64,000 bases of DNA from Candidatus Multivoraceae bacterium (GCA_965219625.1 OZ244782.1:484712-548711), one strand, 5' to 3'; counted from the first letter of the stretch, positions 6,460 through 64,000 are shown. Numbers and translations are program-made. The notes: generated by a model not told the origin, from the sequence alone.

Positions 6460-6465
6460 TTCAGC

Positions 6466-9400: not shown

Positions 9401-10101
9401 TCGCCCGCGTTGCGGATCGCCGCTCTGGGAGCAGCGCCGCGCGCCGCCCAGTTCTCCGCGGCTGTCTTTGTGTAGAGGACGAGGATGTCCAGACTGTCAT
9501 CGCTCTGGGGGCTTCCGCTCTGTCGCGGAGAAGATGGCAGGTCGTACCCCGCTCGCGACGGCAGCTGACCCGGACCCGGCGATCCGGGGAACGGGTCGTT
9601 CTCGTCAGCGACGCCGCAGTAGGGTTCGCCATCCGACGCCGAACCTCCCGCCCGAGCCGGATCGACGATCCTGCCCTCGCCGTCGGGACGGCTGTAGACG
9701 CGGTAGGCCGAGCCCTGCCCAGCATCGAGTCGACCGACGAGATGACCGTCCTCGACGGTCAGCACGACGCTGGCGTGGCCATCCCGGGACTCGCCGCCGA
9801 ACCACGCCAGGTCTCCGTCACCTCGGTCCTCGAACACGCTGAGTTGCGCCCGGACGATCCGTCCCTCGGGAAGCGGGATGACGAGCTCTGCGGGCGCGCT
9901 CCGCAGGAGGTGCAGATCCACGCGGACCGGCGCCGACCAGCTGATTCGCTGCGAGCCGATCGTCTCAAGGGAGGCCGCAGGCTCCGTCGGCGGCAGCAGG
10001 CTGAGCAGGCGCTGCGCCGTCGCGGGTGCAGCCGTAAGGATGATCGTGACGATGACCGCGAGACCTGCCCGAAGCGGTCGACTCGCAGCCGGCTTGCTCA
10101 T
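6466..10101 (-). CDS. secreted reprolysin-like zinc metalloprotease with Fn3 repeats and twinned C-terminal domains of unknown family (paralog 1)
   Basis: Signal peptide (MSKPAASRPLRAGLAVIVTIILTAAPATAQ). HEVGHNLGLHHD (HExxHxxGxxHD) followed by a Met-turn (IMSYPG). Multiple Fn3-like repeats. Two C-terminal ~115-aa repeats (CLxxGRFEV...FWFFxPxNxEL.VKxLDGRAxNGxYW...). The start ATG at 10101 overlaps the upstream stop (ATGA). Confidence 0.8.
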   Translation of the reverse strand: MSKPAASRPLRAGLAVIVTIILTAAPATAQRLLSLLPPTEPAASLETIGSQRISWSAPVRVDLHLLRSAPAELVIPLPEGRIVRAQLSVFEDRGDGDLAWFGGESRDGHASVVLTVEDGHLVGRLDAGQGSAYRVYSRPDGEGRIVDPARAGGSASDGEPYCGVADENDPFPGSPGPGQLPSRAGYDLPSSPRQSGSPQSDDSLDILVLYTKTAAENWAARGAAPRAAIRNAGDYLNNALRYAGVDLLANIVHIAPAPERLDRVGRRPFAPDGSRVDLLEELIRDGEVFRLRHEHRADLVHLFTGEHRFELGYCGIAYLLWGGATSESFSPYGYGVTSNHFVERVAELDTTRFNCPDEGMVFAHEVGHNLGLHHDRPNAGSPDYLRAPYAYGYANFDRLPNLGTIMSYPGQETPYFSSVRFRPEGRIIGSSEQAENDRVLRESIQVGVRYSDSLIDLDGLPAQPTNVEVARIDDLRVRVRWQDNAPEADGYEVTWEGWLTGVAGERVLAEERTEAVVELAEPGGYAFWVEAYAGELRSLRSSVVSLTAPGWEPAAPSSVELGPASEAAPYEAGVEFGTIRWQDNSTNEWAFQVQVLKEGEIVQRRRASADATSRRLWGFEPGVSYEVRVYAYNGWGVSASSEPVFVTWPSPPGPVAVADLRADIVGPTSVRLSWTDRSADEQGVRVMARVPGWYRVFETGPNRESYDLNGLAPGGFYRFVVWPYNSAGPGAAVGTTLTLGTVGPAPAEPLNLAWSHLANGVAQLTWSHQTNDEMGFEVQARRPTAGPSDRWTRVSLLPAGAERFELETGEDLDYRVFAYNAQAFSKSSNTVRGRPVRGGAGTSELTAAPVGATGAILVWTDPWTNAALGVLEVDARRPGQGWTQLATAEAVAGRIVVTGLDADTPYTFRLRADDPQGGTLESVHASLLTDVAVGACRQTSEYLCLGDGRFEVRTHWSNPDALGHHGVGRAADFEDSDESGLFWFFEPENVELIVKVLDGRAINGSYWVFFGALTDLEYWIGVRDTATGERKTYYNSPKNVCGQKDLVAFGELAGASGELAGSGGDARLAPGLELIPAALSVIRTAANVSRGESTGSCQPTADRVCLLNGRFEVAASFIDPNRRPPGPEVARALTSLTGPRTGYFWFFDPSNIELAVKALDGRALNGAYWFLYGGLSDVEYEVTFTDTVSGRAKTYRNEPGSICGNVDADPF

Positions 10102-45647: not shown

Positions 45648-46499
45648 TCAACCTCCGAAGGTGAACGACGGCGCGGCGGTCGGTTCCGGCCCGAGCTGCT
45701 GCCGCGCCCGTACCGCATAGCCGCTCTCCGGGTACTCGTCGACGATGCGTTGAAACGCCTCGCGCGCGCCATCCTCGTCGCCCAGCTGTTCCAGGGTGGC
45801 CGCGAGCTCGAAGAGGAGGGCCTCCTTCGGCAGCGCCGGCGACTCCATCGCGACGGCGCCGCGCAGTTCGGCGGCAACTTCCTCCGCCCGCCCCTCCGCG
45901 CGGTCGAGTCCGTACAGATTCAACCGAACGGCGACCCCGAGCGCATGGTCGTCGCCATTCTCCGCGAGATACTCCGACCACAGCTCCCGCGCCAATTCCG
46001 TGTCGCCGTCCGACGCGGCGATGCGGCCAAGGTAGACGGCCGCCAAGCTGCCCGAGACGGTCGCGCCGTACTCCTCGCGAACTGACTCGAGCCTGGACTT
46101 CGCCGCCGCGCGGCGTTCGGCCTCCGAGGCGAAGCTCAGTTCCGCTTCATCGGCGGCCTCGGCCTCGCCTTCGGCCGTCGCCTCCACGGCATCGTCAGCC
46201 GCCGCCGTATCGTCCGGTGCGCTGTCCGGCGGCGTGTCGAACAGGTCGGCGATCGGGTCCGTGTCCGGTTCCTCGATCGGCGCCCGGTAGACCTCGAGAG
46301 CCTCGCTGAGCGCGAAGCTCGCGGACGCCTCGCGTCGGTCCTCGTACTGCAGGTAGAGCATCAGGCCGACGCCGAGCAGGATCGCCGCCGCGGTCCCCAA
46401 CAGGATCTGGCGAATGTGGTCGACGAACCAGTGGGCAGCGGAAACTACCGCCTCGCGCACCTCGTCGCGCCGCATGTCCTCCGGTCTCAACGTGTTCAT
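45648..46499 (-). CDS. membrane-anchored tetratricopeptide-like protein (YfgM-like)
   Basis: Short cytoplasmic N-terminus, one TM helix (ILLGTAAAILLGVGLMLYL), an acidic linker, then TPR-like helical repeats. Confidence 0.55.
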   Translation of the reverse strand: MNTLRPEDMRRDEVREAVVSAAHWFVDHIRQILLGTAAAILLGVGLMLYLQYEDRREASASFALSEALEVYRAPIEEPDTDPIADLFDTPPDSAPDDTAAADDAVEATAEGEAEAADEAELSFASEAERRAAAKSRLESVREEYGATVSGSLAAVYLGRIAASDGDTELARELWSEYLAENGDDHALGVAVRLNLYGLDRAEGRAEEVAAELRGAVAMESPALPKEALLFELAATLEQLGDEDGAREAFQRIVDEYPESGYAVRARQQLGPEPTAAPSFTFGG

Positions 46500-46629
46500 C
46501 CAAAGTCCCTCCCGAGCAGCCGGACCCTACCAGCATCCGCGGCAGGCGCCGCGCCCACAAGCTGGGAGGGACGATTCGGCGGCGATGCGACCTCCGGCTG
46601 GCCGGCGTCCGTCGCCGCTGACCGACCGA

Positions 46630-46654
46630 CCCGGCCCGGGAGTGCCGGGCCGGC
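46630..46654 (-). terminator. GC-rich hairpin 8 nt downstream of the giant-gene stop (candidate intrinsic terminator, no U-tract)
   Basis: CCCGGCCCGG-GAGTG-CCGGGCCGGC, a 9/10-bp stem immediately after the stop codon at 46663-46665. Confidence 0.3.
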
Positions 46655-46662
46655 GGTCTTCG

Positions 46663-49600
46663 TCAACGTTCGAGCCGCCCCCTCGCCGGCGGTTCGCTGC
46701 AGGCGGCGATTCGCGTGAGCTGGATCTCGTCGAACCACGCGTCGCCCTGGTTGTCCCCGTCCCGCGCGGCGCGGATCCGCACACCGCCGACGGAGGCGGG
46801 TATGCACTTCGTCACCGCCCGGCATTCCCACGCTCCGACGGAGCTGGCCACGACGTGCGCGTCCTCGAACGAAGCGTCACGGCCACGACCGTCGTCGAAG
46901 TCGACGAACACGTTGTCGCCCGCGTGCTCGCGCAGCACGCAGGCCGACAACTCGTAGACGCCGCCCTCAACCGGAATCCACTCCGCGGCGACCGCGGAAT
47001 CCGAACCCACGTCGCCGCCGGACACGGCGCCGCGAAGCAACAGGCCCCAGGAACCCGAGTCGGCCGAATCGGCCGAGGAACCCGGCCCGGCAGGCGAACG
47101 CGCAACGACCGCGTCTCCCGAATCCGACGTCCAACCTGGCGCCGCGGACATCCTCACCTCGCCGCCCTCCAACTCGGAAGCAACGTCGTCCAGGCCGCCG
47201 TTCACCACCGCCGTCTTCGGCCAGCCCGGAGAGAACGGATCGAACCACGGCGAACTCGGACGATAGGACGGCACAGGCACGAGCGACTCCTCAACCGCCC
47301 ACCACTCCGCAACTTCCCCCGGACCGGACGCCGAGCGACGCGAATACACCGCGCCACGGCCACGAGCCAGGTAGAACTCGTCGTACGCCTCCGCCCTGCT
47401 CGCATCCGCCCAGAAGCGGACCTCCAGCACGTCCTCGAACGTCAGACCGCCAACCACCGGCGCCGTGAACGACGCGTGGTGAGCGACGACCTCCAGGCGC
47501 ATCGTCGTAGCAAGAGCGCCCGCCTCGTTCCGCAGACGGTTCGACAGGTAACGACCGGTCACCGAACTCTCCAACACGTCGCCTACCGCCATGTAGCGGT
47601 TCATCCACCGGAACGGCCTGTCGAGCGACACGCTCAGGCGATCCGAAGACCCGCCCTCGACCGTGCCCCAGTAGTCCAAGCCGCCTTCCGTCTCCTCGAA
47701 CAGGTCGTACCGATCTCCCCCCGGAGTCCCCAAGAGCGCCATCGGACGGCCCCACAGCTCACCTCGCCAGAAGGACCGAAGCTCGTGGGAGTCCGCGGCA
47801 GGCCACAACCGACCGTCGACCAGGCGGCTCCGCACCCCCGAAGCGCTCCCGTGAGGCGACAGCCAGTACTCGAACATGTCGAACAGGTCGCCCGACGTCG
47901 TCGAGGGCTCGGACGAATCGGATGGCTCCACCAGCCCGGGATCCACTCCGCCGGCACGCGACGACGCGGCGGCCGAACCGACGGCCCCCTCGGACACCTC
48001 GATCGTGAACGTAAGCGTCGCCGAGTTCCCGTTCCCGTCCGACGCCGTGTACGTGTACGCCGTCTCCGCCTGAACCGCCGTCGGCGTACCGGACAACGTC
48101 CGCGTCGACGCGGAGAAACTCACGCCCGCCGGAAGGCCAGGCGTCACCGCGTAACTCAACGCGCCGCCCGTACCGGTCGCCGCCGGCAAGACGACGGACC
48201 CAACCGCCTCGTCCCTCACCCATGTCTGCGCCGCGATCGTCTCGTCCCCGAACGACGGGTCCTCCACCGCGATCGTCACGCTTCCCGTCGACTCGCCGAA
48301 CCACGCCACGCCGTCATGCACCATCTTCCACTCGAACGCATGCGGGCCTACCGTCGACGGCGCCGTGATCTCCAACGTGAAGTCCACCGTCTCTCCCGGC
48401 CCGACGCTTGCCGACACGTCCGCGTCGTCCGCGCTCGCCGGCAGCTCCACACGGTTCAAACCCCACGTCACGTTGTCTTGAGGGTTCTCTGAGCCCAGCC
48501 GGTACCCCTCGGCTTCCGTCCACGTCGTCGTCCCCACATTCTTCATCGTCACCGTCACCGACGCCGTCGAACCCGCCGCCATCTTCGAAGGCACACCGGA
48601 CGTCGACACGAAGGACGCATCGTCCACCAGGACCGCCTCTACCGTCATGCTGAACGTCAACGACGCCGAATCCCCGCCCGCGTCCGTCGCCGTGTACACG
48701 TACGCCGTCGTCGCCATCGCGTCCGTCGGCGTACCGGAGATCGTCCGCGTCGACGCGGAGAAACTCAAACCCGCCGGCAGTGCAGGAGAGAGCGAGTAGC
48801 TCAACGCACCGCCCCTACCGCTTGCCGCCGGCAAAACGACCGCCTCGATTGCCTCATCCTGCACATACGTCGCGTCCGCGATCGTCTGATCACCGAACGA
48901 CGGGTCCTCCACCTCGATCGTCACGCTCCCCGTCGGCTCGCCGAACCACGCCACGCCGTCATGCACCATCCGCCACGCAAACGCGCGCGCGCCGACCGTC
49001 GACGGCGCCGTGATCGTAAACGTAAAGTCCACCGTCGCGTTCGGCACAACGCTCACAGGACCGTCCGCGCTGACCGGCAGATGCGCCCGATTCGTACCCC
49101 ACGTCACGTTGTCCTGAGAATCCTGCGAGCCCAGGCGATACAACTTCGCCTCCGTCCACGTCGTCGTCCCCACATTCTTCATCGTCACCGTCACCGACGC
49201 CGTCGAACCCGCAACCATCTTCCCCGGCACACCCGACCAAGAGACGAACGATGCGTCGTCCACGGGAAACGCCGCCACCCTGATGCTGAACGTCAACGAC
49301 GTCGAATTCCCGGCCCCGTCCGTCGCCGTGTACGTGTACGCCGTCGCCGCTTGAACCACCGTCGGCGTCCCGGACAACGTCCGCGTCGACTCCGTAAACG
49401 TCAGCCCCGCTGGCAGCGGAGGAGTCACCGCGTAACTCAACGCACCGCCCGAACCGCTCGCCGCAGGCAACACGACCGGCTCGATCGGAACGTCCTTCAC
49501 ATACGTCTGGTCGATGATCGTCTGATCACCGAACGATGGGTCCTCCACCTCGATCATCACGCTGCCCGTCGACGAGCCGAACCACGCCACGCCGTCGCGA

Positions 49601-52600
49601 ACCATCCGCCACTCGAACGCATGCGGGCCTACCGTCGACGGCGCCGTGATCTCGAACCTGAACTCCACCGTACCCTTCGGAGGCACGATCACCGGAGCGT
49701 CAACGCTCCCCGGCAGATGCGCCCGATTCGTCCCCCACGTCGTGTTGTCTCGAACGCTCTCCGAACCCAGACGATAAAGCCCCGCCTCGGCCCACGTCGT
49801 CGTCCCCACATTCTCCATCGTCACCGTCACCGTCGCCGTCGAACCCACTGCCATCTTCGAAGGAACCCCGGACGTCGACACGAACGAAGCGTCGTCCACC
49901 GGAATCACCTCCACCTCGATCGCCCCCCCGCTCGGCGTCGACGAGCCGAACCATGCCACGCCGTCACGAACCATCTGCCACACGAAACCGTAGCTCCCAG
50001 CCGCCGACGGCGCCGTGATCGTGAACGTGAACTCCGCCGTCGTGTTCGGCGCCACCTCGCCAGGCAACGGCACCCGGTTCAAACCCCACGTCAGGTTGTC
50101 CTGATTGCCTTGCGAACCCAAGGAGTACCGATCCGACGACCGCCACGTCGTCGTACCCACATTCTCCATCCGCACCGTCACCGACGCCGTCGTACCCGCC
50201 GCCATCTTCGACGGAACCCCAGACGTCGACACGAACAACGCGTCGTCCGCCGACACCGACGCGACCCGAATGTGAAACGCAAGCGACGCCGAGTTCCCGG
50301 CCCCGTCCGTCGCCGTGTACGTGTACTCCGTCTCAGGCATCGTCGCCGTCGGCGTCCCCGACACCGTACGCGTCGACTCCGTGAAACTCACACCCGCCGG
50401 CAGGGCAGGAACGAGCGAGTAGCTCAACGCTCCGCCCGTACCGCTCGCCGCAGGCAACACGACCGGCTCGATCGGAACGTCCTTCACCCACGTCTGGTCG
50501 ACGATCGTCGCGTCGCCGAACGACGGGTCTTCCACCTCGATCGTCACGCTACCCGTCGACGAGCCGAACCACGCGACGCCGTCGCGGACCATCTGCCACT
50601 CGAAAGCTCGACTGCCCGTCGTCGACGGCGCCGTCATCGCCAACGTGAAGTCCACCGTCGTGTTCGGAGGCACGCTGACGGAACGGCCGGGAGCCTTCGG
50701 GTCCGCTGGCAGAGACACCCGATTCACACCCCAGGTCAGATTGTCCTGAACGTTCTGCGAACCCAGGCGATAGGAACCCGTCTCGCTCCACGTCGTCGTC
50801 CCCGCATTCTCCATCGTTACCGTCACCGCGAACGTCGAACCCGCAGCCACCTTCGAAGGTACCCCCGACCAAGACACGAACGAAGCGCCGTCACGAGACA
50901 CCGCCTCCACCGTGATGTGGAACGTCAACGACGCCGAATTCCCCTTCCCGTCCGTCGCCGTGTACGTGTACTCCGTCTTCGGCATCGTCGCCGAAGGAGT
51001 CCCCGACACCGTCCGCGTCGACTCCGTGAAACTCACTCCCGGCGGCAGAACAGGAACGAGCGAGTAGCTCAACGCTCCGCCCGTACCCCTCGCCGCAGGC
51101 AACACGACCGGCTCGATCGGAACGTCCTTCACCCACGTCTGGTCGACGATCGTCGCGTCACCGAACGACGGGTCCTCCACCGCGATCGTCACGCGACCCG
51201 TCGACAAGCCGAACCACGAAACGCCGTCGCGCACCATCTGCCACTCGAAACCGTAGCTACCCACGACCGCCGGCGCCGTGATACCGAACGTGAAGTCAAC
51301 CGTCGCACCCGGAGCCACCTCGCCGGGCAACGGCGCACGATTCCGACCCCACCTCACGTTGTCCTGCGGATCCTGCGAACCCAGACGGTACTCGCCCGAA
51401 GGCGTCCACGTCGTCGTCCCCTCGTTCTTCATCCGCACCGTCACCAAAGACGTCGTACCGGCAACCATCTTCCCAGGCACACCAGACCACGAAACGAACG
51501 ACGCATCGTCCTCCAACGACGCAACGACTTCGATCGTGAACGTGAGCGACGCGGACGAACCAACCCCGTCCGTCGCCGTGTACGTGTACTCCACCGCGTC
51601 CTGCAACTCCGTCGGCGTCCCTGACACCGTACGCGTCGACTCCGAGAAACTCACCCCCGTCGGCAACGCAGGCGTCAGCGAGTAGCTCAAAGCCCCGCCC
51701 GTGCCGCTCGCCGAAGGCAACACGACCGGCTCAAGGGGCACGTCCTTCACCAGCGTTTGATCCGGAATCGTCCAGTCGCCGAACGACGGGTCTTCCACCT
51801 CGATCGTCACGCTACCCGTCGACGAGCCGAACCACGCGACGCCGTCGCGGACCATCTGCCACTCGAAAGCTCGACTGCCCGTCGTCGACGGCGCCGTCAT
51901 CGCCAACGTGAAGTCCACCGTCGTGTTCGGAGGCACGCTGACGGAACGGCCGGGAGCCTTCGGGTCCGCTGGCAGAGACACCCGATTCACACCCCAGGTC
52001 AGATTGTCCTGAACGTTCTGCGAACCCAGGCGATAGGAACCCGTCTCGCTCCACGTCGTCGTCCCCGCATTCTCCATCGTCACCGTCACCGCGAACGTCG
52101 AACCCGCAGCCACCTTCGAAGGTACCCCCGACCAAGACACGAACGAAGCGCCGTCACGAGACACCGCCTCCACCGTGATGTGGAACGTCAACGACGCCGA
52201 ATTCCCGGCCCCGTCCGTCGCCGTGTACGTGTACTCCGTCTTCGGCATCGTCGCCGAAGGAGTCCCCGACACCGTCCGCGTCGACTCGGAGAAACTCACC
52301 CCCGTCGGCAGAGCAGGCGTCAGCGAATAGCCCAACGCTCCGCCCGTACCCCTCGCCGCAGGCAACACGACCGGCTCGATCGGAACGTCCTTCACCCACG
52401 TCTGGTCGACGATCGTCGCGTCACCGAACGACGGGTCCTCCACCGCGATCGTCACGCGACCCGTCGACAAGCCGAACCACGAAACGCCGTCGCGCACCAT
52501 CTGCCACTCGAAACCGTAGCTACCCACGACCGCCGGCGCCGTGATACCGAACGTGAAGTCAACCGTCGCACCCGGAGCCACCTCGCCGGGCAACGGCGCA

Positions 52601-55600
52601 CGATTCCGACCCCACCTCACGTTGTCCTGCGGATCCTGCGAACCCAGACGGTACTCGCCCGAAGGCGTCCACGTCGTCGTCCCCTCGTTCTTCATCCGCA
52701 CCGTCACCAAAGACGTCGTACCGGCAACCATCTTCCCAGGCACACCAGACCACGAAACGAACGACGCGTCGTCCACAACGAACGCCGCCACCTCAAGCGA
52801 AAACGGAAGCTCAGCCGCGTCACCGTCACGGTCCGTCGACATGTACGTGTACCCCGTCTCCGGCTGAACCTCCGTCGGCGTGCCAGAAAGCACCCGCGTC
52901 AAGCCGTCGAACTCCAAACCCGAAGGCAGCGACTCGACAACCTCGTACGTCAGCTCCCCGTTCCCGCCAACCGCCGCCGGCAGCGTCACCGGAACCATCG
53001 GCTCGTTCAGGGTGAGGAACTGCGGAACGATCGTCTGAACCCCGAACTCCGGCGCCGAGTCCTCCTCCACCGCGATCAACAACGGGAGCGAATCCTCGTC
53101 TCCGTCACGGTCCCCAACCGTGTACGCATACTCCGTCGCCGGCTGAACCGCCGTCGGCGTGCCGGAAAGCACTCGCGTCGCGGCCTCGAACTCCAAACCC
53201 GAAGGCAGCGACTCGACGATCGCGTACGTCAGCTCCCCGTTCCCGGCGACCGCGGACGGCAGCGTCACCGGCGACATCGGCTTGTTCAGGCTGAGGAACA
53301 GCGGATCGATCATCGTGACCTCGAACCCAGGAGCGGAGTCCCCTTCCACCTCGATGCTGACGACAAGCGACGCCTCGTCGCTGTCGCGGTCCGTCGCCGC
53401 GAACGTGTAGTCCGTCGCCGGCTGGGCCGTCGTCGGCAGGCCGGAGAGACCGCACGGCGGGGTCGGGTCGAGCGTCACACCCGCCGGCAACGCGGGAGAC
53501 TCCGGCGCCACGGAACATGTCACGTCCGCATTCCCGCCCGTCACGCCGAGGCTCAGGTCGACCGACGTCCTGCCTTCCGTCCACACGACCGGACTCTCGA
53601 CCGCGCCGAACGTCGGCGTCGTGTCCGGTTCCACCTCGATCGTCAACAGGAGCCAATCCTCGTCACCATCGCGGTCCGCAACCGTGTACGTGTAAGGCGT
53701 CTCCGGCTGCACCGCCGTCGGCGTGCCGGAAAGCGCCCGCGTCGTAGCCTCGAAGGCCAAACCCGAAGGCAGCGACTCGACGATCGCGTACGCCAGCTCC
53801 CCGTTCCCGGCGACGGCCGACGGCAGCGTCACCGGCGACATCGGCTTGTCCTGGCTCAGGATCAGCGGAGCGATCGACTCGTCTTCGAACCCAGGAGCGG
53901 AGTCCCCTTCCACCTCGATGCTGACGACAAGCGACGCCTCGTCGCCGTCGCGGTCCGTCGCCGCGAACGTGTAGTCCGTCGCCGGCTGGGCCGTCGTCGG
54001 CAGGCCGGAGAGACCGCACGGCGGGGTCGGGTCGAGCGTCACACCCGCCGGCAACGCGGGAGACTCCGGAGTCACGGAACATGTCACGTCCGCATTCCCG
54101 CCCGTCACGCCAAGGCTCAGGTCGACCGACGTCCTGCCTTCCGTCCACACGAGCGGACTCTCGACCGCGCCGAACGTCGGCGTCGTGTCCGGCTCCACCT
54201 CGATGCTGACGACGAGCGTCGCCGTGTCCCCGTCGTAGTCCGTCGCCGTGAACGTGTAGTCCTCCGCCCCTTGAACCGCCGTCGGCGTACCCGAGAGAAT
54301 GCACGGAGCGGTCGGCTCGAGCGTCACGCCCGAGGGCAGCGCGGGAGACTCCGACGTCAACGTGCATGTCGGCCCGAAATTGCCGTCCTCCAGGCCGAGA
54401 CTCACCTCGACCGGTCGGTTCTCCGTCCAGACCTGACTCCCGACCTGCCCGAACACCGGAGACGTGTCCGGCACGACGCCGATCGTGAACTCCCGCGAAG
54501 CAACGTCACCGTCGTCGTCCGTTGCCGTCCACGTGTACGTCCTCGGCGCCTGCGGCGCCGTCGGAACACCCGAAATCACCCGGCCCGACCGGGACATCCC
54601 AGCCGGCAGAACGGCGGAGAGACTGTACGTCAACGGCTGGTTCCCGCCCGTCGCCGCCGGCAGCGTCATCGAGCCCGGATAACCGACGATCCACGTCCGC
54701 GAGGGGAACCACTCCAGGACCGGCGTCTTGTCTTCCAAGACCGTCACGGTCACCGTCGCGGATTGGTAAACCTCGGGGCCGGCCAGCGTGATCAACCATA
54801 TGCCGGCCTCGTGGCCATATGCCGGCCTCGTGGCCGCTCACCGACACCTGCTGCGGCGAAGAGTAGTTCGATGCGTCGAAGTCCAGGCTGGAGGGACTCG
54901 CCGACACCTTCGAGATGTCCTCCTCGGTCACCGTCACCGTAGCGCCACCCGTGGACGGCGGCTCTGACAGGGACGCTCCGAAGGTCACCGACTCCCCCTC
55001 GATCACGGTCAAGTACAGAGGTTCCGGCGGACCGAGATCATCCAAACGAATCGTACCTAAATCAATGTACGGGCGCGGTTGGTCGACCACCGTTACGTCC
55101 ACCGTCACTGTCGAGTCGCACCCGCCGCCGATTGAAGTCAGGGTGACCGAGGTCTGCTCGTCGTTCCGGTCGTCGTCCCACACACCTTCCAGCGTAATCT
55201 GCTGCGCGGCCGCACTCGTGAATTGGAGGGGCGAATCGGAGGCGTTCTTCAGCTTGACCGCGCCCAGATCGTTGATTACGACGGGCACATTTACCCGGCC
55301 TGTCGGCGTCCTGGACAGCGAGACGGTCAAGTCGGCTTCGCCGCCTTCGACCAAGACCAGCGGATTCGGCGACACGACCAGACTGCACGGCGGCCCGACC
55401 GTGATGTCGAACGTCACGACGCCCGCGTCGGTCGGGGCCGTGTTGCCGTCCGCGTCCGTCGCCGTGAACGTGTACGCCGCCGTGTCCTCATCCGCAGACG
55501 GCGTCCCCGACACCGTGCATGACGAAGCGTCCAGCGACACCCCTGCCGGCAATGCCGGCGCGTTCGAGCAGGTCACATCTCCATTGCCGCCCGTCACCCC

Positions 55601-56272
55601 GAGGTCCAGATCGACAGCCACACCCGTCGTCCAGTCCTGATCCGCGATGCTCCCGAACGTCGGCACCGTGTCCGTACCCACCCAGATCGTCCGGGCCGAC
55701 GTCGAGTCGCCGAACGGCGTCGAGCCGACGAAACCGGAAACCGCGGGCGAGGACGCAACAACAGGTCCCGGATTCGGGCCCGGGTTCGTCTCGGTGATCC
55801 TGCGCATGCGAAACTGAAAGCTGTAGCTCCCAGCGGTCGAAGGCGCCGTGATCGTGAACGTGAAGTCGTGGACGGCGTCCGGCGCCACGGTGCCGAAGAC
55901 CGGCACGCCGGCCACTGTCGACCCGCTGTCGAGACCCCAGGTATCGCCGACCCAAAACAACGTAAAGAACGTCACTGTGTTCGGGAGGAACCGAGTCGAC
56001 CAGCTCTGCGTCCCCGTGTTCTTCATGCGGACCGTCACTGTCCTCGTCTCGCCGGGCGACATGAACTCCGACGCGGACGGCAAGCCGGTCCAGGACACGA
56101 ACTCCGCATCGTCGGCGCCCATCGCTGGCGACACCATGAAGCCGAGCGCCAGACAAGCCGCCGCGACCGCCACAAGCCGAGTCCCACCGTGGTGCTGCAT
56201 CGTTCTGCTCCCGCTCATCATCCGCCTCCTCGCGTCTGATTCACTACCGCTCATCCGAACCGTCCTCTTCAA
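46663..56272 (-). CDS. giant secreted cell-surface repeat protein (~3,200 aa): signal peptide, FW domains alternating with CADG/He_PIG Ig-like domains, CBM4/9-like C-terminus; frameshifted here by a 19-bp tandem duplication
   Basis: ORFs 54506-56272 and 46663-54795 fuse in frame (…SVSGHEAGIW|LITLAGPEVYQ…) when one copy of the 19-bp repeat at 54797-54834 is removed. N-terminal signal peptide (MKRTVRMSGSES…LALGFMVSPAMGA). At least 20 repeats of the LPxGxxFxxxTRxxSGTPTxxQxxTxYTYTATDxxGxxAS type (dystroglycan-type cadherin-like). Repeats with four or five conserved Trp residues (ASFVSWSGVP…NxGTTTW…YRLGSQ…WG…FEWQMVRDGVxWFG) match the FW/NBR1-like domain. The C-terminus ends …GDAWFDEIQL, like CBM4/9 modules. 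Confidence 0.8.
50512..53037. repeat. two tandem near-identical 1,263-bp (421-aa) units inside the giant gene; each unit encodes FW-CADG-FW-CADG
   Basis: Shadow ORFs 50549-50872/51812-52135, 50891-51136/52154-52399 and 51296-51490/52559-52753 are pairwise near-identical with a constant 1,263-bp offset. The encoded protein shows two ~421-aa blocks that are almost identical. Unit boundaries are approximate. Confidence 0.7.
54797..54834. repeat. perfect 19-bp tandem duplication (CATATGCCGGCCTCGTGGC x2) inside the giant gene, causing a +19 frameshift
   Basis: Units at 54797-54815 and 54816-54834 are identical. Deleting one unit restores a single reading frame across 46663-56272. Confidence 0.9.
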
Positions 56273-58320
56273 CTACGCCCAGCCCGCCAGCCGGCGCACC
56301 GACTTCGCCCGACCGCGCCTCGCACACCTCCGAAAACGCGGTCACGTCGACCACCGCGGCAGACGGTTTGCCGGCCTCCCGTCTGTATCTCTTGGACTCA
56401 TACGTCTCCAGGTCCAAGACACCGAGAGAGAGCCGCAGGTCCGTCGCCGAGGCCGCGAGCACCCAATGGTGACCGTTCACCGCACAGCCGTCCAGCACCT
56501 TGACGAGCACCTCCCAATTCTCCGGGCCGAAGAAGTAGACGATGCCCGACTCGTCCGTGCCTACAGAGGCTACCCTCGCGCCTATACGCTCCCCCGTCTC
56601 TGACCAGTAGTCCACCCAGACCGAGTAACGACGATTCCGGAGACACAGCCTCGTTTCCGTCGGCACGCACGGGCCGACCGCCTCCTCCGCCACAACAGAA
56701 ACCGGCGCCTCGGCCGCCGCCGACCAGCCGCTCCCATCCGACAACGAAGCAGCAGCGGCGGCAGACGCCGCCCCAGCCTCCGAGCCGTCGCAGGCCCTCG
56801 GAAACGCGTTCACGTCGACGATCGCCGGCGCCGGAGACCCCGGCTCGTTCTCGTACGCGCGGAACGCACCCGTCGCCGTGTCCGTTACCCGAATCCGGTA
56901 CCCGAGGTCCGTCGTCGACGCCCCGAGCACCCACACCCGGCCGTTCACCGAACAACCGTCGAGCACCTTGATCAAGACCTCCCAGTTCTCAGGGTCAAAG
57001 AAAGACAGCAACCCCGAGTCGTTCGTACCCACGGGAACGACCGCCGCCCGCCCCGAATCCCCGTCCAGGCTCCACCACTCCGCCGTCACCTCGAAACGGG
57101 AATCCCGAAGGCAACGCGTCTCCCCGTCCGCAGCGCACGTCCCCGCCGGAGACGCCGCCTCGACGAACACCGTCCGCGAAGCGGATGACGAATCCGAACC
57201 GTCGCTAAACGTCAGAACCACTTCATAGAACCCCGGGGAGGACCAGGAGTGGACCGGCGACTCCAGCCGAGACGTCGTCCCATCGCCGAAGTCCCACGTC
57301 CGCTCCGTCGCTGAAGCGTCGCTCGTATCGACGAACGTGACCGGTTCGCCCGTCACCGTGCGGCAGAGCTCCGCCCCCGCACAAGGCGCACCGAAGTCGA
57401 ACGAAGGCGCAGGAATCGCAACCGTACGCGCACGCACCGTCGCCGGCGGACCGGCGCCGCGCCCCGTCCACGCCCGCACCTGGAACGCGTACTCCCTACC
57501 CGGGTCGAGCCCCGTCGCCCGGTAGCTCCCGGATTCGTTCGGCACCGTCTTCCAGCGGTCCTCCGCAACGTCGAACGGAAGCTCCCGCGCCGGCTTCCAA
57601 CGAACCTCCTGCCGGCCTGCCGTAATCGGCGATTCCACTTCCCATGTCAGATCGACCGCCACGCTCAAGGCCGACGCCGAAAGACCAACGATCTTCGGCG
57701 GCGGAGGGCGCCAGGAACTCCGAGAGTAGCCGCGATCGTTGAACGCGAACACGCGGAACATCTTCCCCGCAGGCACGACGGCCGTCTCCACGTCCGCGGA
57801 CACGACCAGCGCCCTCCTCCAGATTTCGGCGCCATTGCTGACCTGGACTTCAAAGCCCGTCTCGTCGTCCGAGTTGTCGCGCCAGCGAAGCCGCACTGTG
57901 TCACCGAGCCGCTCTTCCGTAACGCCCGACGGCGCCTCAGGCCCGAAACCCCGCGAACCCAGCGTCAGCCGGCCGTATGAAGCTGAACTGCTCTTGCCGG
58001 GGCGATGGGCGACGGCGGTGAACACATAGCGGCCGCCGCGCGCCAAGTTCTCGAAGTCCACCCGACCGCGACCCTCGGCGACCTGAACCGAATCGCCCCA
58101 CCCCTCCAAACTCGCGAAAACCGAGTGAGACTCGGCCTCTGCGTCGGGCGCCCAGGAAACCCGTGCCGTCGTCGGACCGGCGGCGGTCACCGCAAAGCCC
58201 GCGACGCCGAGCGCGGCGTCTTCATCGCCCGAAGGCAACGTCACGACATCGCTGCTCTCGGATTCGCCCCACTTGTTCCACGCGACCACCTGCACGCCGT
58301 ACTCCGCGTTCGCGTCACGC
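56135..58320. repeat. segmental duplication, copy A (3' ~2.2 kb of the metalloprotease gene plus the first 138 nt of the giant gene)
   Basis: Near-identical to 60440-62587 at a 4,305-bp offset (identical shadow ORFs 56398-56955 / 60703-61260). Identity is 100% over the 3' ~1.3 kb and decays toward the 5' side. Confidence 0.85.
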
Positions 58321-60134
58321 CCAGGCACGAAGCCGAAGAACCGAAAGGACTCGCTGTTCGCCGGCGCCTCTCTCCTGAAGACCACCTCGCCGGCCCGCAG
58401 GAGGCGCACATCGAAGCCCGTTTCATTGTCCGAATTGTCCCGCCAACGGACATCCAAGCTGTTCGGCGGGAACGTCACCGAAACGTCCGAAGGCGCCGCA
58501 ATCGGATCGCCAGGCAACCAGATTCCAGCCCAGTCGCTCCACAGCGACCGAGCCGAGCCGACCAACGAACGCACCCGGAAGTGGTAGATGCCAGGAAGGT
58601 CTCCTCCCCCGAAAGACCACTCCGCCTCCGTCCGCCCCTCAGCGCGCCGGATGTCCTGCCACCCCGTCAGCCTGTTCACGCGCTCCACCTCGTAGCCGTC
58701 CCCGTCCGCGGCGCTGTCTTCCCAGCTCAAGCGAGCCGACGAACCGTCCCGTTGCAACCGAACTCCGGTCGGCTGAGCCGGGATGTCCGCCGGCGGCAAG
58801 TAATCGCTGTACCGCACGCCGACGTGGACCGTCTCCCGCAGCAAACGCTCGTTGTCCCGCTCGCCTTCGATCCCCAACACCGCCCCGTACAAACGAAGCC
58901 GCGGCGTCGAGTAGAACGGCTCGGTCTGGCCGCTCAGGCTCATCGCCGTACCCAAGGCCGGCATCGCGTCGTAATCCACATGGCCATATGCATACGGCCA
59001 CCGGCTCGGCGCCCGCCAACCTGGCGGTTGGTGGCCAGCGCCCAGACCGTGGCCCACCTCGTGGACGAACGTCGCAGCGTAGTCACCGCCGCACGCCGAC
59101 GGGTGGTTCGACGTATAGCCGCGGGCATAGGGAGAGAAGCTCTCCGCCGTAAAGAAGGGGCGCAACCATCCGTGTAAACCGCAGCCCGCCACCCCCGGCA
59201 GCGACCCACTCTCCCCTGTAAACAGGTGCACCAGGTCCGCCCGATGCTCGTGACGTAACCGCTGGAGCTCCCCGTCCCAGACGATCAGGTCGATCAGGCC
59301 GATTCCCGCGTCCAACTCCGGCCTGCTCAGATCCCGCCCCGCACGGTCCAGCGTCGACGAAGCCTCGACGACGTGCACGATGCGGGGCGTCACCTCAAGG
59401 CCGTTGTTCCGGAACACGAGCGATAAGTAATCGGCCGCGTGCTGGATCGCAATCTCCGCTCCGCCGATGGGCGCCCAGTACTTCGCAGCCTCCTTCGTGT
59501 ACGCGACGAGGATGTCCAGGTAATCGTGATCGCGGTGGCTCTGATGGCTCGCCGTCCCGCGCGGCGCATCCGCGCCGCGGCCAGCCGCATTCGCACGGCT
59601 CTCCGCCCCGACGCCCGCCGCGGCCTCCTCCTCTTGCTCCACACCGCACCACGGCTCCCCTTGACCCGGCCCGGCCCCGCCCAAGGGCGACATCCCGCCA
59701 AGGCCGTCCGAAGCCGAATGGATCCGATACGCACCGCCCCCAGGAGCCCCGAAACGCCCGATCAGCCGCCCTTCGTGAATCGTCAGGACGACCGTGTCGT
59801 ACCCGGCCTCGCGGTTCCCCCCGAACCAGACCCCATCCCCGTTTCCCCGGTCCTCGAAGGCGGAACGTTCGGCGTAGATCACATCACCGTCCGGCGTCGG
59901 CGCCTCGAGAACCAGGGGAGCGCTACGAAGAAGATCCAAGTCCGCCTGAATCGCAGTCACCGGCGCCGGACCCATCGATCCCCCGCCCTCCACGGACGAC
60001 GCTTCCGCCACGGAAGGCAAGAGCGTCAGCAAACGCTGAGCCTCCACCGGCAACGCCGCCAGCCAGACGAACACCACGGCGAACGGCAGAGCCGCGAGCC
60101 GGCGAACAGCGGGCAGGGGGCGCGGATTGGACAT
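56244..60134 (-). CDS. secreted reprolysin-like zinc metalloprotease with Fn3 repeats, a PKD domain and twinned C-terminal domains of unknown family (paralog A)
   Basis: Signal peptide (MSNPRPLPAVRRLAALPFAVVFVWLAALPVEAQ; ATG at 60134 preferred over the GTG at 60158). HEVGHGLGAGHQ with the Met-turn AMSLSG. Fn3 repeats. PKD (WDFGDGTTS…GFYEVVLTFSDG). Two C-terminal ~115-aa repeats (CLRDSRFEV…SFFDPENWEVLIKVLDGCSVNGRVW…; CLRNRRYSV…YFFGPENWEVLVKVLDGCAVNGHHW…). The stop overlaps the giant-gene start by 29 nt. Confidence 0.8.
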   Translation of the reverse strand: MSNPRPLPAVRRLAALPFAVVFVWLAALPVEAQRLLTLLPSVAEASSVEGGGSMGPAPVTAIQADLDLLRSAPLVLEAPTPDGDVIYAERSAFEDRGNGDGVWFGGNREAGYDTVVLTIHEGRLIGRFGAPGGGAYRIHSASDGLGGMSPLGGAGPGQGEPWCGVEQEEEAAAGVGAESRANAAGRGADAPRGTASHQSHRDHDYLDILVAYTKEAAKYWAPIGGAEIAIQHAADYLSLVFRNNGLEVTPRIVHVVEASSTLDRAGRDLSRPELDAGIGLIDLIVWDGELQRLRHEHRADLVHLFTGESGSLPGVAGCGLHGWLRPFFTAESFSPYARGYTSNHPSACGGDYAATFVHEVGHGLGAGHQPPGWRAPSRWPYAYGHVDYDAMPALGTAMSLSGQTEPFYSTPRLRLYGAVLGIEGERDNERLLRETVHVGVRYSDYLPPADIPAQPTGVRLQRDGSSARLSWEDSAADGDGYEVERVNRLTGWQDIRRAEGRTEAEWSFGGGDLPGIYHFRVRSLVGSARSLWSDWAGIWLPGDPIAAPSDVSVTFPPNSLDVRWRDNSDNETGFDVRLLRAGEVVFRREAPANSESFRFFGFVPGRDANAEYGVQVVAWNKWGESESSDVVTLPSGDEDAALGVAGFAVTAAGPTTARVSWAPDAEAESHSVFASLEGWGDSVQVAEGRGRVDFENLARGGRYVFTAVAHRPGKSSSASYGRLTLGSRGFGPEAPSGVTEERLGDTVRLRWRDNSDDETGFEVQVSNGAEIWRRALVVSADVETAVVPAGKMFRVFAFNDRGYSRSSWRPPPPKIVGLSASALSVAVDLTWEVESPITAGRQEVRWKPARELPFDVAEDRWKTVPNESGSYRATGLDPGREYAFQVRAWTGRGAGPPATVRARTVAIPAPSFDFGAPCAGAELCRTVTGEPVTFVDTSDASATERTWDFGDGTTSRLESPVHSWSSPGFYEVVLTFSDGSDSSSASRTVFVEAASPAGTCAADGETRCLRDSRFEVTAEWWSLDGDSGRAAVVPVGTNDSGLLSFFDPENWEVLIKVLDGCSVNGRVWVLGASTTDLGYRIRVTDTATGAFRAYENEPGSPAPAIVDVNAFPRACDGSEAGAASAAAAASLSDGSGWSAAAEAPVSVVAEEAVGPCVPTETRLCLRNRRYSVWVDYWSETGERIGARVASVGTDESGIVYFFGPENWEVLVKVLDGCAVNGHHWVLAASATDLRLSLGVLDLETYESKRYRREAGKPSAAVVDVTAFSEVCEARSGEVGAPAGGLGVVEEDGSDER

Positions 60135-60301
60135 TTCGACTGAAAACCACCTTAGCACCCCTGCACGCCTTTCCCCACAGGAGCTGCGAGAAACCGCCGA
60201 CAGCCATGCCTGTCAAGCTCGTGGCGACGGCGCTGCCCGTTACGGAAGCGCTCGCAAACCTCCCGGCCCGCCACCAGGGGCACCAGCCAGTTGCCGGCGT
60301 T

Positions 60302-60577
60302 CTATTCCCTCTCCCACGTGGTCGTTCCCGTGTTCGACGCGACGACCGTCACCGTCGCCGACCCGCCGGGAGCGATGAAGTCCGGAAGAACGGGTTCCGT
60401 CACGATCGCCGCATTGTCTGCGCCGCGGACGGCCGTCGACATGAAGCCGAGCGCCAGACAAGCCGCCGCGACCGCCACAAGCCGAGTCCCACCGTGGTGC
60501 TGCATCGTTCTGCTCCCGCTCATCATCCGCCTCCTCGCGTCTGATTCACTACCGCTCATCCGAACCGTCCTCTTCAA
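60302..60577 (-). pseudogene. truncated remnant of the giant gene's 5' end (signal peptide + partial FW domain, 91 aa) created by the segmental duplication
   Basis: The first 46 codons are identical to the giant gene start (MKRTVRMSGSES…LALGFM). It then diverges (…ASNTGTTTWERE*) and stops. It overlaps the upstream paralog B stop by 29 nt, like the parental arrangement. Confidence 0.6.
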
Positions 60578-62587
60578 CTACGCCCAGCCCGCCAGCCGGC
60601 GCACCGACTTCGCCCGACCGCGCCTCGCACACCTCCGAAAACGCGGTCACGTCGACCACCGCGGCAGACGGTTTGCCGGCCTCCCGTCTGTATCTCTTGG
60701 ACTCATACGTCTCCAGGTCCAAGACACCGAGAGAGAGCCGCAGGTCCGTCGCCGAGGCCGCGAGCACCCAATGGTGACCGTTCACCGCACAGCCGTCCAG
60801 CACCTTGACGAGCACCTCCCAATTCTCCGGGCCGAAGAAGTAGACGATGCCCGACTCGTCCGTGCCTACAGAGGCTACCCTCGCGCCTATACGCTCCCCC
60901 GTCTCTGACCAGTAGTCCACCCAGACCGAGTAACGACGATTCCGGAGACACAGCCTCGTTTCCGTCGGCACGCACGGGCCGACCGCCTCCTCCGCCACAA
61001 CAGAAACCGGCGCCTCGGCCGCCGCCGACCAGCCGCTCCCATCCGACAACGAAGCAGCAGCGGCGGCAGACGCCGCCCCAGCCTCCGAGCCGTCGCAGGC
61101 CCTCGGAAACGCGTTCACGTCGACGATCGCCGGCGCCGGAGACCCCGGCTCGTTCTCGTACGCGCGGAACGCACCCGTCGCCGTGTCCGTTACCCGAATC
61201 CGGTACCCGAGGTCCGTCGTCGACGCCCCGAGCACCCACACCCGGCCGTTCACCGAACAACCGTCGAGCACCTTGATCAAGACTTCCCAGTTCTCAGGGC
61301 CGAAGAAAGACAGCAGGCCGGAATCGTTCGTACCCACGGGAACGACCGCCGCCCGCCCCGAATCCCCGTCCAGGCTCCACCACTCCGCCGTCACCTCGAA
61401 CCGGGAGTCCCGAAGGCAACGCGTCTCCCCGTCCGCAGCGCACGTCCCCGCCGGAGACGCCGCCTCGACGAACACCGTCCGCGAAGCGGATGACGAACCC
61501 GAACCGTCGCTCACCGTCAAGACGACCTCGTAGAAACCCGGCGTAGACCACGAGTGGACCGGAGACCGCAAACGTGACGTCGTCCCGTCGCCGAAGTCCC
61601 ACGTCCACTCCCTCGCCGAGGAATCGCTCTCGTCGACGAATGTCACCGGCTCGCCCGTCACCGTGCGGCAGAGCTCGGAACCCGCGCACGGCGCCCCGAA
61701 GTCGAACGACGCCGCGGGAATCGAGGCTGTCCGCGCACGGACCGTCACCGGCGGGCCGGCGCCCCGCAACGTCCACGCCCGCACCTGGAACGCGTACTCC
61801 CTACCCGGGTCGAGCCCCGTCGCCCGATAGCTCCCGGATTTGTTCGGCACCGTCTTCCAGCGGTCCTCCGCAACGTCGAACGGAAGCTCCCGCGCCGGCT
61901 TCCAACGAACCTCCTGCCGGCCTGCCGTAATCAGCGATTCCACTTCCCATGTCAGATCGACCGCCACGCTCAAGGCCGACGCCGAAAGACCAACGATCTT
62001 CGGCGGCGGAGGACGCCAGGAACTCCGAGAGTAGCCGCGATCGTTGAACGCGAAGACGCGGAACATCTTCCCCGCAGGCACGACGGCCGTCTCCACGTCC
62101 GCGGACACGACCAGCGCCCTCCTCCAGATTTCGGCGCCATTGCTGACCTGGACTTCAAAGCCCGTCTCGTCGTCCGAGTTGTCGCGCCAGCGAAGCCGCA
62201 CTGTGTCCCCGAGCCGCTCTACCGTAACGCCCGACGGCGCCTCAGGCCCGAAACCCCGCGAACCCAGCGTCAGCCGGCTGTATGAGGCTAAACTACTGCT
62301 GCCGGAGCGGTGGGCGGAAATCGAAAACACATAGCGGCCTCCGCGCGCCAGGTTCTCGAAGTCCACCCGACCGCGACCCTCGCCAACCCGAACCGAATCG
62401 GAGGACCACCCGTCCAAACTCGGCCGAACCCAGTGATAGTCGGCCTCTGCGTCAGGCACCCAGGAAACCCGCGCCGTCGTCGGACCGACGGCCGTCACCG
62501 TCAAGCTCGCGACGCCGGGCAAGACCTCCGCATCGCCCGTAGGCAACGTCACGACATCGCTGCTCTTGGATTCGCCCCACTTGTTCC
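60440..62587. repeat. segmental duplication, copy B
   Basis: See copy A. Copy B continues for ~48 bp after the IS insertion (63929-63976), then diverges from copy A. Confidence 0.85.
60549..62587 (-). pseudogene. reprolysin-like metalloprotease paralog B, 3' portion; interrupted by an ISL3 insertion
   Basis: C-terminal 430 aa are 100% identical to paralog A. The PKD and Fn3 regions are progressively divergent. The reading frame runs into the IS at 62588. Homologous sequence resumes after the IS at 63929 and continues past the window end. Confidence 0.75.
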
Positions 62588-63927
62588 GGGTCTTCAGGCT
62601 GTTGTGTGGGGAGCGCGCCACGCGGTTAGTCGCCGGTGACCCATAGACTGGCGGGATGAAGAGTGCGAGGACGTTCGAGAGGCTGTTGGGGATCAAGCCG
62701 CCTTGGCGGGTGCGGGAGGTGGTGCTCCGTATGGACGAGCCGCATCCGCGACGTCGCGGCGCGGTGGTTGGCGGCACGGTGGAGATTCACGTCGAGCATC
62801 GTGGGGAGACCCGCTGCCCCGAGTGCGGCGAGCGGTGTCCGGGCTACGACAGCAGACACCGCAGGTGGCGGCATTTGGACACGATGCAGCACCAGACGCG
62901 TGTCCACGCGGAGGTGCCTCGGGTGCGCTGCGTCGAGCATGGCGTACTCCAGTTGAAGGTGCCTTGGGCGGACGAGGGTTCTCGTTTCACGGCGCTGTTC
63001 GAGGCAGAGGCCATCGGCTGGCTTCGTGACGCGAGCGTTCAGGCGGTGGCGCGACGCATGGGTCTGAGCTGGGATCAGGCGGCGGGGATTCAGCGCCGGG
63101 CAGTGGATCGCGGCCTTTCGCGGCGCCGGTTGCGGCCGCCGCGGCTGCTGGGCGTGGACGAGACGGCGTTTCGGAGGCGACACGAGTACGTGACGGTGGT
63201 CAACGACCTGGAGCGAGGCGTGGTGGCCCATGTGGCCGACGGTCGCGGCCGGTCGGCCATCGACGGCTACTTCGAGGGTCTGGGCGAGACGACCTGCGCG
63301 GGCATCGAGCAGGTGGCGATGGACATGTGGCCGGCGTACATCTCTTCGGTGAAGGCGTACACGAACGCGGTGATCGTGCACGACCGGTTCCACATCGTCG
63401 CGCACCTGAACCACGCCGTGGACCTGGTTCGGCGCGCCGAGCAGCGGGAGTTGCTTGAGGCAGGCGATCCGCGTCTGAAGCGAAGCCGCTACCTGTGGTT
63501 GATGGGGAAGGGCCGCATGAACCGCTCGCAGCGGCGACGTTTCGCTGCTCTTCGCACGAGTCACCTTCGCGTGGCTCGGGCCTGGGCGATCAAGGAGATG
63601 GCGCGGGACTCGTGGGGCTATGCGAGCCGCGGTTGGGCAGAGCGGCGCTGGAAGCGCTGGTACGGCTGGGCGGTCCGCAGCCGTTTGGCGCCGATCAAGC
63701 AAGTGGCCAAGATGATCAGGGATCACTGGGAGGCCGTCATCAACGCCGCCGTGTCCAGCATCTCCAGCGCCAGCGCCGAGGGCATCAACGCGAGGATCCA
63801 GGAGATCAAGCGAAGAGCGCACGGCTAGCGAAACCGAGAGCACTTCCGCCTCGCCATCTACTTCCATCTCGGCGGACTCGATTTGACTCCCGATTCACTG
63901 CAAGCCCACACACAACCCTGAAGCGCC
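62588..63927 (+). mobile_element. ISL3-family insertion sequence (1,340 bp) with imperfect ~24-bp terminal inverted repeats and an 8-bp target-site duplication CTTGTTCC
   Basis: IRL is GGGTCTTCAGGCTGTTGTGTGGGG (62588-62611). The reverse complement of IRR is GGCGCTTCAGGGTTGTGTGTGGGC (63904-63927). Direct repeats CTTGTTCC sit at 62580-62587 and 63928-63935. Flanking sequence is contiguous with paralog A's homologous site. Confidence 0.85.
62656..63828 (+). CDS. ISL3-family transposase
   Basis: 390 aa. N-terminal zinc-finger (CPECGERCPGYDSRHRRWRHLD) and the LGVDETAFRRRH…DMWPAY…HDRFHIVAHLNHAVD core, which are typical of ISL3 transposases. Confidence 0.9.
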   Translation: MKSARTFERLLGIKPPWRVREVVLRMDEPHPRRRGAVVGGTVEIHVEHRGETRCPECGERCPGYDSRHRRWRHLDTMQHQTRVHAEVPRVRCVEHGVLQLKVPWADEGSRFTALFEAEAIGWLRDASVQAVARRMGLSWDQAAGIQRRAVDRGLSRRRLRPPRLLGVDETAFRRRHEYVTVVNDLERGVVAHVADGRGRSAIDGYFEGLGETTCAGIEQVAMDMWPAYISSVKAYTNAVIVHDRFHIVAHLNHAVDLVRRAEQRELLEAGDPRLKRSRYLWLMGKGRMNRSQRRRFAALRTSHLRVARAWAIKEMARDSWGYASRGWAERRWKRWYGWAVRSRLAPIKQVAKMIRDHWEAVINAAVSSISSASAEGINARIQEIKRRAHG

Positions 63928-64000
63928 CTTGTTCCACGCGACCACCTGCACGCCGTACTCCGCGTTCGCGTCACGCTCGCGCGCGGAGACGTCTAACCGA

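Follow-up and report, generated by a model that had tools for sequence, protein, structure and literature searches.

Mosaic identity among tandem secreted metalloprotease genes at two loci of a Thermoanaerobaculia-type Acidobacteriota genome points to recurrent gene conversion

The window analysed here, a stretch of 64,000 nucleotides (nt) from Candidatus Multivoraceae bacterium (GCA_965219625.1, OZ244782.1:484712-548711), belongs to a Thermoanaerobaculia-type Acidobacteriota genome and contains a tandem pair of secreted metalloprotease genes, A and B, directly upstream of a giant gene of immunoglobulin (Ig)-like repeats (giant gene 1; Table 1). The product of gene A consists of a signal peptide, a reprolysin-like M12 domain, about five Fn3 domains, a PKD domain and two C-terminal domains (CTD1 and CTD2). 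Gene B, upstream of A on the minus strand, is a full-length tandem paralog (about 1300 aa) that is split by an insertion sequence (IS), and a short fragment open reading frame (ORF) lies between the two genes.

Table 1. Features of the tandem protease locus and blocks of A/B nucleotide identity. Positions are counted from the first letter of the window; locus 2 is the second locus described in the text.
Feature	Position	Strand	Details
Giant gene 1, He_PIG / Ig-like repeats	46663-56218	-	Directly downstream of A; first 28 codons inside the presumed conversion tract
A/B identity, distal giant-gene start (A copy)	56009-56134		About 70%
A/B identity, perfect tract (A copy)	56135-56978		100%
Identical 844-nt tract, A side	56135-56978	-	Last 245 protease codons (end of CTD1, linker, CTD2), 25-nt spacer, first 28 called giant-gene codons (signal peptide)
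Gene A, intact secreted multidomain metzincin, 1296 aa	56244-60134	-	ORF and translation; Pfam Reprolysin_5/_3, fn3, PKD; exact protein on record on two contigs
A/B identity, next block (A copy)	56978 to about 57200		About 95%
A/B identity, PKD domain (A copy)	57200-57460		About 80%
PKD-region block, A outlier	57204-57504	-	B 93-99% identical to both locus-2 copies, 80-86% to A
A/B identity, two Fn3 domains (A copy)	57460-57960		About 98%
A/B identity, one Fn3 domain (A copy)	57960-58279		About 83%
Region upstream of gene A, downstream side of junction	60159-60322	-	First 100 nt 100%, then 93% identical to the region upstream of P0001, locus 2
Fragment ORF, 73 aa (91 aa from upstream TTG at 60577)	60302-60523	-	Truncated giant-gene start; marks the tandem-duplication junction
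Identical 844-nt tract, B side	60440-61283	-	
Gene B, 3' part	60549-62587	-	679 codons, end of second Fn3 domain (Fn3-2) to stop; corresponds to A residues 618-1296; open frame; Pfam fn3, PKD
Target-site duplication, left copy, 8 bp CTTGTTCC	62580-62587		
ISL3-family insertion sequence, 1340 bp	62588-63927	+	Transposase ORF 62656/62731-63828; Pfam and ends
Target-site duplication, right copy, 8 bp CTTGTTCC	63928-63935		
Gene B, 5' part, last 24 codons	63928-64000	-	Gene runs on past the window end; whole 5' part is P0123

Self-comparison of window positions 54000-64000 yields one strong direct repeat, in which 56009-58279 matches 60323-62587 at an offset of 4305 nt (4308 or 4314 past small indels) with 92.8% identity over 2274 nt; an additional short match relates 58272-58344 to 63928-64000. 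The direct repeat at offset 4305 that a first-pass annotation of the window had reported is real, but its starts at 56135 and 60440 are those of the longest perfect run (844 nt) and the true match is larger than the span it gave. This run is flanked by sharp drops in identity on both sides, and a run of this length would have a chance of approximately 1e-17 if the 104 mismatches were spread evenly over 2001 nt. Beyond the perfect tract the giant-gene and fragment ORFs remain homologous, in diverged form, so that the edge of the tract is not the edge of the duplication. The 152 positions at which the copies differ are arranged in alternating blocks of high and low identity with no monotonic trend (Table 1), which is a mosaic rather than the 3'-to-5' gradient described at first. 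At the protein level, identity is complete over the last 249 residues only, with 314 of 316 and 414 of 430 (96.3%) identical over the longer C-terminal stretches, and the first-pass claim of 430 identical residues was overstated. The peptide differences that it quoted for an Fn3 domain are present, but they were misplaced: the Fn3 domains directly preceding PKD are nearly identical in A and B, and it is two domains upstream of these that the divergent one is found.

Synonymous divergence between A and B (dS, Nei-Gojobori) is 0.005 in the tail, 0.15 at the start of CTD1, 0.53 in the PKD domain (omega 0.14), 0.03 in the two similar Fn3 domains and 0.19 in the divergent Fn3 domain (omega 0.85). 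This range from 0.005 to 0.53 between blocks indicates that silent sites are as heterogeneous as replacement sites. The 844-nt tract, which spans CTD2, the spacer and the signal peptide of the next gene, would represent the youngest conversion block in the locus.

The same genome contains a second locus with the same layout and junction and with a perfect 3' tract of its own. Two paralogs, P0124 (1300 aa) and P0001 (1298 aa), are located on a contig that is taken to be the same 3.70-Mb contig as that of P0123, the 5' part of B. On a contig of an ENA assembly (ctg118239, L003) the order is P0124, a 73-aa ORF, P0001 and a second giant He_PIG gene (giant gene 2). The tandem unit of this locus measures 4317 nt and its copies are 92.3% identical over 4152 nt, again with a mosaic profile; the perfect run (678 nt) occupies the equivalent position, where it extends from the protease 3' end across the spacer into the beginning of the next ORF.

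The fragment ORFs at both loci end in ...TGTTTWERE followed by the stop codon, and the DNA just past the junction (window 60322-60249) is 100% identical between the loci. The signal-peptide parts of the fragments match the local giant gene (QHHGGTRLVAVAAACLALGFM at locus 1, EDGCGIRFGFVAAACLMLGFM at locus 2). In the locus-1 fragment the signal-peptide part is identical to that of giant gene 1, and the distal part shares 96% identity with the locus-2 fragment and 93% with the beginning of giant gene 2. The combination of a common junction with locus-specific homogenised flanks is a signature of concerted evolution. The first 46 codons of ORF 60302-60577 are indeed common with the giant gene, as noted at first, but the homology does not end there, since a diverged match on the giant-gene side runs on to the fragment stop. 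For annotation purposes, the 73-aa ORF is a duplication relic.

A four-way nucleotide alignment of the units A, B, C (P0124) and D (P0001) displays phylogenetic incongruence from block to block. Sites in the Fn3 region group A with B and C with D. In the PKD block, 44 sites set A apart from the other three and 6 separate the two loci, none of the latter falling in the central 200 columns. CTD1 is almost invariant. Over CTD2, the spacer and the leader, all 173 variable sites separate A and B from C and D, without singletons, and in the distal giant-gene start the pattern returns to A against the rest (35 sites). In a Sawyer-type permutation of the polymorphic sites, based on maximal concordant runs, each of the six pairs reaches P <= 2e-4. 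Within CTD2, A and B are 100% identical, as are C and D, and between loci identity is 63-88% for nucleotides and 48-65% for amino acids. In the proteins, N-terminal residues 33-150 are 92-100% identical among the four copies, and in the block of alignment columns 201-240 (A residues 193-232) the identity of A to the locus-2 copies (92-95%) exceeds its identity to B (80%). The paralogs thus show similarity beyond the age of their duplication, abrupt tract borders at silent and replacement sites alike, and incongruence between adjacent segments. Among the 124 retrieved family proteins no donor was found for the A PKD patch or the N-terminus of giant gene 1. A diversity-generating retroelement target was also considered and was rejected: of the 48-54 differences in each variable block just 6-8 involve adenine, and every type of substitution is seen, so that the adenine bias is lacking and there is no such signature, although no reverse-transcriptase search was made.

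The whole of gene B can be accounted for. The last 103 nt of the window (63898-64000) encode exactly the C-terminus of P0123 (...RLDVSARERDANAEYGVQVVAWNKGASGLCVGLQ and stop), including the read-through into the right IS end and the stop codon. P0123 has 635 residues, of which the last ten are this read-through (GASGLCVGLQ after ...RLDVSARERDANAEYGVQVVAWNK), and contains a signal peptide, the metzincin motif and Fn3 domains; its 625 residues of B are 91.9% identical to A residues 1-619. It is the third member of a 90%-identity protein cluster with A and the C-terminal part of B, and is recorded on a 3,701,229-bp contig. Sequence look-ups of the 365-aa transposase, P0001 and P0123 returned no record, and it was the protein cluster that resolved the 5' half of B; the last 41 nt, which are specific to B, had no exact match in the genome or metagenome contig collections scanned. 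B is therefore full-length, with its 5' half just beyond the window end, and not a duplicate of the protease 3' half as the first-pass annotation had it. The loss of identity placed about 48 bp beyond the IS is likewise apparent only and results from a short variable patch and then the end of the window: 49 identical nt are followed by 9 mismatches in 24 nt, still in frame. B is better annotated as one IS-split pseudogene or gene than as a partial duplicate.

The insertion sequence reported to interrupt copy B is present; it entered the last strand of Fn3-2 of B as a simple insertion. Its transposase contains Zn_ribbon_ISL3 (PF14690), HTH_Tnp_ISL3 (PF13542) and DDE_Tnp_ISL3 (PF01610; E = 4.8e-68) domains, and its terminal inverted repeats are imperfect, matching at about 19 of 23 positions (GG..CTTCAGG..GTTGTGTG.GG). 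The 8-bp target duplication is perfect, and CTTGTTCC occurs once at the uninterrupted A site (58272-58279). The single transposase with these three domains, the length of ~1.3 kb, the imperfect inverted repeats and the 8-bp target duplication are all as in other ISL3-family elements.

A second assembly of the locus, ENA contig ctg119234 of ERZ26695579 (L001), reproduces window positions 46245-63928 at 99.98% over 17.7 kb, with both copies. It is distinct from the window in two substitutions, one indel and the right IS flank. Both single-nucleotide differences are in the right part of the IS (63371 and 63828). Relative to the ENA copy, the window transposase ends at a TAG codon (63826-63828; TAT in the ENA contig) and is 31 residues shorter (365/390 versus 396 aa); without these last 31 residues the window copy may be defective. 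Past the right IS end, from L001 position 6207 downward, the ENA contig continues into unrelated DNA (CACTTTCT..., then a DUF222/HNH gene) with no matching target duplication, and the 8.8 kb past the IS show no homology to the 5' half of A. The pattern suggests that two IS copies have recombined or were joined chimerically.

These observations are very probably explained by recurrent gene conversion, within and between loci, that homogenised the tandem protease paralogs. The possibility of conversion between paralogs raised in the first-pass annotation is strongly supported by the silent-site heterogeneity, the second locus and the abrupt four-way switches, and the single A/B gradient is replaced by a multi-block mosaic that involves at least four paralogs at two loci. 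The mosaic, the common junction, the incongruence between blocks and the anatomy of the IS are direct observations; a mechanism of RecA type, the direction of the individual transfers and the sequence of events belong to a reconstructed history. An old tandem duplication of a ~4.3-kb unit (the protease and roughly the first 73-90 giant-gene codons) would have produced the pair and the leftover fragment ORF, and the whole module would later have been duplicated to the second locus of the same genome; the tandem duplication is old rather than recent because it predates the locus duplication. Afterwards, homologous recombination would have copied segments non-reciprocally and repeatedly, within the tandem pairs and between the loci, so that each gene would be a patchwork of blocks of very different ages. 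The ISL3 element entered B by simple transposition, in this reconstruction recently, and left a 625-aa N-terminal piece of the protease and a C-terminal half that lacks a promoter, each still an open frame.

Several points weigh against this explanation. The evidence for the copies and junctions comes from assemblies, with about 4.3x coverage in the ENA contig, and that contig departs from the window directly past the right IS end, so that at least one assembly or haplotype is rearranged there. The 5' half of B is known as a protein only and the nucleotide mosaic covers the 3' part of B. The divergent A PKD patch and the divergent N-terminus of giant gene 1 could be ancestral sequence that escaped conversion, or could have been imported from unsampled paralogs. 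Finally, strict gene conversion is inseparable here from double unequal crossing-over.

Unequal crossing-over, with expansion of the array followed by contraction, could have produced the terminal identical tract in place of non-reciprocal conversion. Arrays of 2-4 copies in relatives indicate changing copy number, and the identical tract at both loci reaches, or nears, the downstream end of the repeat unit. However, a single crossover of this type cannot yield internal patches with diverged flanks, such as 57751-57902, the 98% Fn3 block or the inter-locus PKD block, and the inter-locus patches require ectopic conversion or double crossovers. This origin of the tract is accordingly considered unlikely.

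The fallback offered in the first-pass annotation, in which PKD and one Fn3 domain diversified rapidly after a very recent tandem duplication, would agree with the young appearance of the identical tract and with the high dN/dS ratio of the divergent Fn3 block. It is contradicted by the heterogeneity of the silent sites, the PKD differences being mostly synonymous (34 of 54 at third codon positions), and by the common junction, which recurs at the second locus in copies that are 20-40% diverged from locus 1; in addition, the PKD block of B is 93-99% identical to the locus-2 copies. Recent duplication is thus very improbable. Just as improbable is an assembly artefact, in which one protease gene was assembled as two or polishing rendered the 844-nt tract identical. 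The low coverage given in the contig names (4.30x and 4.44x) and the disagreement of the ENA contig with the window over the right IS junction and one 1-nt indel might point in this direction, but the copies have many differences and different flanks, only one of them carries the IS with its perfect target duplication, both assemblies agree over 17.7 kb including both copies though differing elsewhere, the second locus is an independent instance of the same structure, and relatives have arrays of 2-4 copies. Purifying selection alone on CTD2, although the CTD is conserved in the family, can be dismissed almost entirely, since synonymous sites in more than 240 codons and the non-coding spacer are identical as well and CTD2 is among the most divergent parts between the loci.

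Giant gene 1 itself is broken. A perfect 19-bp tandem duplication (CCATATGCCGGCCTCGTGG twice) at 54796-54833 shifts the frame after about 490 codons and splits the gene into ORFs of 588 and 2710 aa; it lies in a stretch where the window and the ENA contig have no difference and could be a pseudogenising mutation or a reversible switch. At position 48289 a 1-nt difference between the assemblies leaves one 2710-aa ORF in the window and ORFs of 2238 and 359 aa in the ENA contig, and is probably a consensus error in one of them. Giant gene 2 (L003 about 19060) also changes frame near its 5' end, at an apparent 1-nt indel (...TLPFS/ITVAPPC...), so that by their frame breaks both giant genes appear to be interrupted early. 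The region 46663-54600 of giant gene 1 consists of long internal tandem repeats (periods 645+618 nt and 279/285 nt, 63-98% identity) and has a strongly negative GC skew (about -0.2).

The zinc motif HExxHxxGxxH is present in the proteases as HEVGHGLGAGH, at residue 358 in A and 362 in B. Profile matches of the catalytic domain are weak: 27.8 bits for Reprolysin_5 (cut-off 27), 25.9 for Reprolysin_3 (22.4) and 38 for the NCBIfam model Mep72 (645). The proteins thus share the zinc motif and weak catalytic-domain matches with Mep72-like/reprolysin-like bacterial metzincins (PF13688, PF13582, NF052434), but the scores are at or far below the cut-offs, and the tail of five Fn3 domains, PKD and two CTDs is specific to this Acidobacteriota family. 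CTD2 (56310-56705) and CTD1 (56760-57128) are copies of a repeated C-terminal domain of ~125 aa with conserved cysteines and with (D/G)PENWE and KVLDGC motifs, found in 120 of the 124 family members examined. No Pfam or NCBIfam model matches either copy, and a confident all-beta AlphaFold model of the domain (pLDDT 88.8) has no significant PDB neighbour; the domain family is unnamed.

The closest family-encoding genomes (44-51% identity) are metagenome-assembled genomes of Candidatus Multivorans, other Thermoanaerobaculia (Acidobacteriota), Holophagales and Vicinamibacteraceae. Several of them have 2-4 tandem protease copies followed by a highly repetitive giant gene, which indicates that tandem arrays are normal for this family. 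A more distant paralog in the window (6349-10101, minus strand; 39% identity over the N-terminal 800 aa, about 29% C-terminally) is outside the conversion network. Scanning 55900-64000 for promoters and terminators revealed nothing promoter-like and a background level of terminator-like sites. A literature search on Candidatus Multivorans found nothing.

The four genes at two loci might in addition constitute a functional system for segment shuffling, with CTD2, spacer and leader as the preferred tract and with exchangeable PKD/Fn3 blocks, although such a role is considered improbable. If true, shuffling would serve a host-associated symbiont of the Acidobacteriota by diversifying or coordinating its secreted proteases and the giant adhesin that is their partner, and the IS-silenced halves would be donor cassettes. 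For practical purposes, trees and orthology calls for the expanded protease family need to treat each block separately and will otherwise mislead. It takes long-read assemblies, which resolve near-identical repeats, to make the case visible.

A survey documents concerted evolution among paralogs in prokaryotes (PMC6053082), and a further study deals with conversion rates in rRNA operons (PMC8022953). The protease genes have in common with bacterial concerted evolution the excess of likeness between paralogs relative to the age of duplication, the sharp changes between tract and flank, and the inference of recombination from these. The tufA/tufB genes and the rRNA operons are examples of such evolution by gene conversion; in contrast to them, conversion here is partial and block-wise, affects a large modular secreted protein and not a housekeeping gene, and involves tandem pairs and two dispersed loci.

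Gene-conversion mosaics among the PE/PPE/esx genes of Mycobacterium tuberculosis are described in two papers (PMC13061034, PMC12046097). The protease genes resemble them in the exchange of segments among exported-protein paralogs, the patchwork genes and the local hot spots of diversity, of which long-read assemblies give the best view. The same likeness extends to babA/babB of Helicobacter, a conversion mosaic of surface proteins. Relative to both, the organism (a host-associated Acidobacteriota) and the protein family are different.

Neisseria pilE/pilS, Borrelia vlsE and Anaplasma msp2 are programmed antigenic-variation cassette systems, with which the protease genes share non-reciprocal segment copying; the promoterless 3' half of B could still be a donor. 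Assignment to this class was rejected, as A, P0001 and P0124 are whole genes that each encode a signal peptide and B was complete before the IS. Unlike those systems, the protease genes also lack an array of silent partial cassettes and a single expression site, and no initiating element, for example a G-quadruplex (G4) motif, is known for them. The process at work here is a known one that is well exemplified, involving no new mechanism or kind of element, and the two loci provide a clean example of intra- and inter-locus conversion in an uncultured Acidobacteriota lineage.

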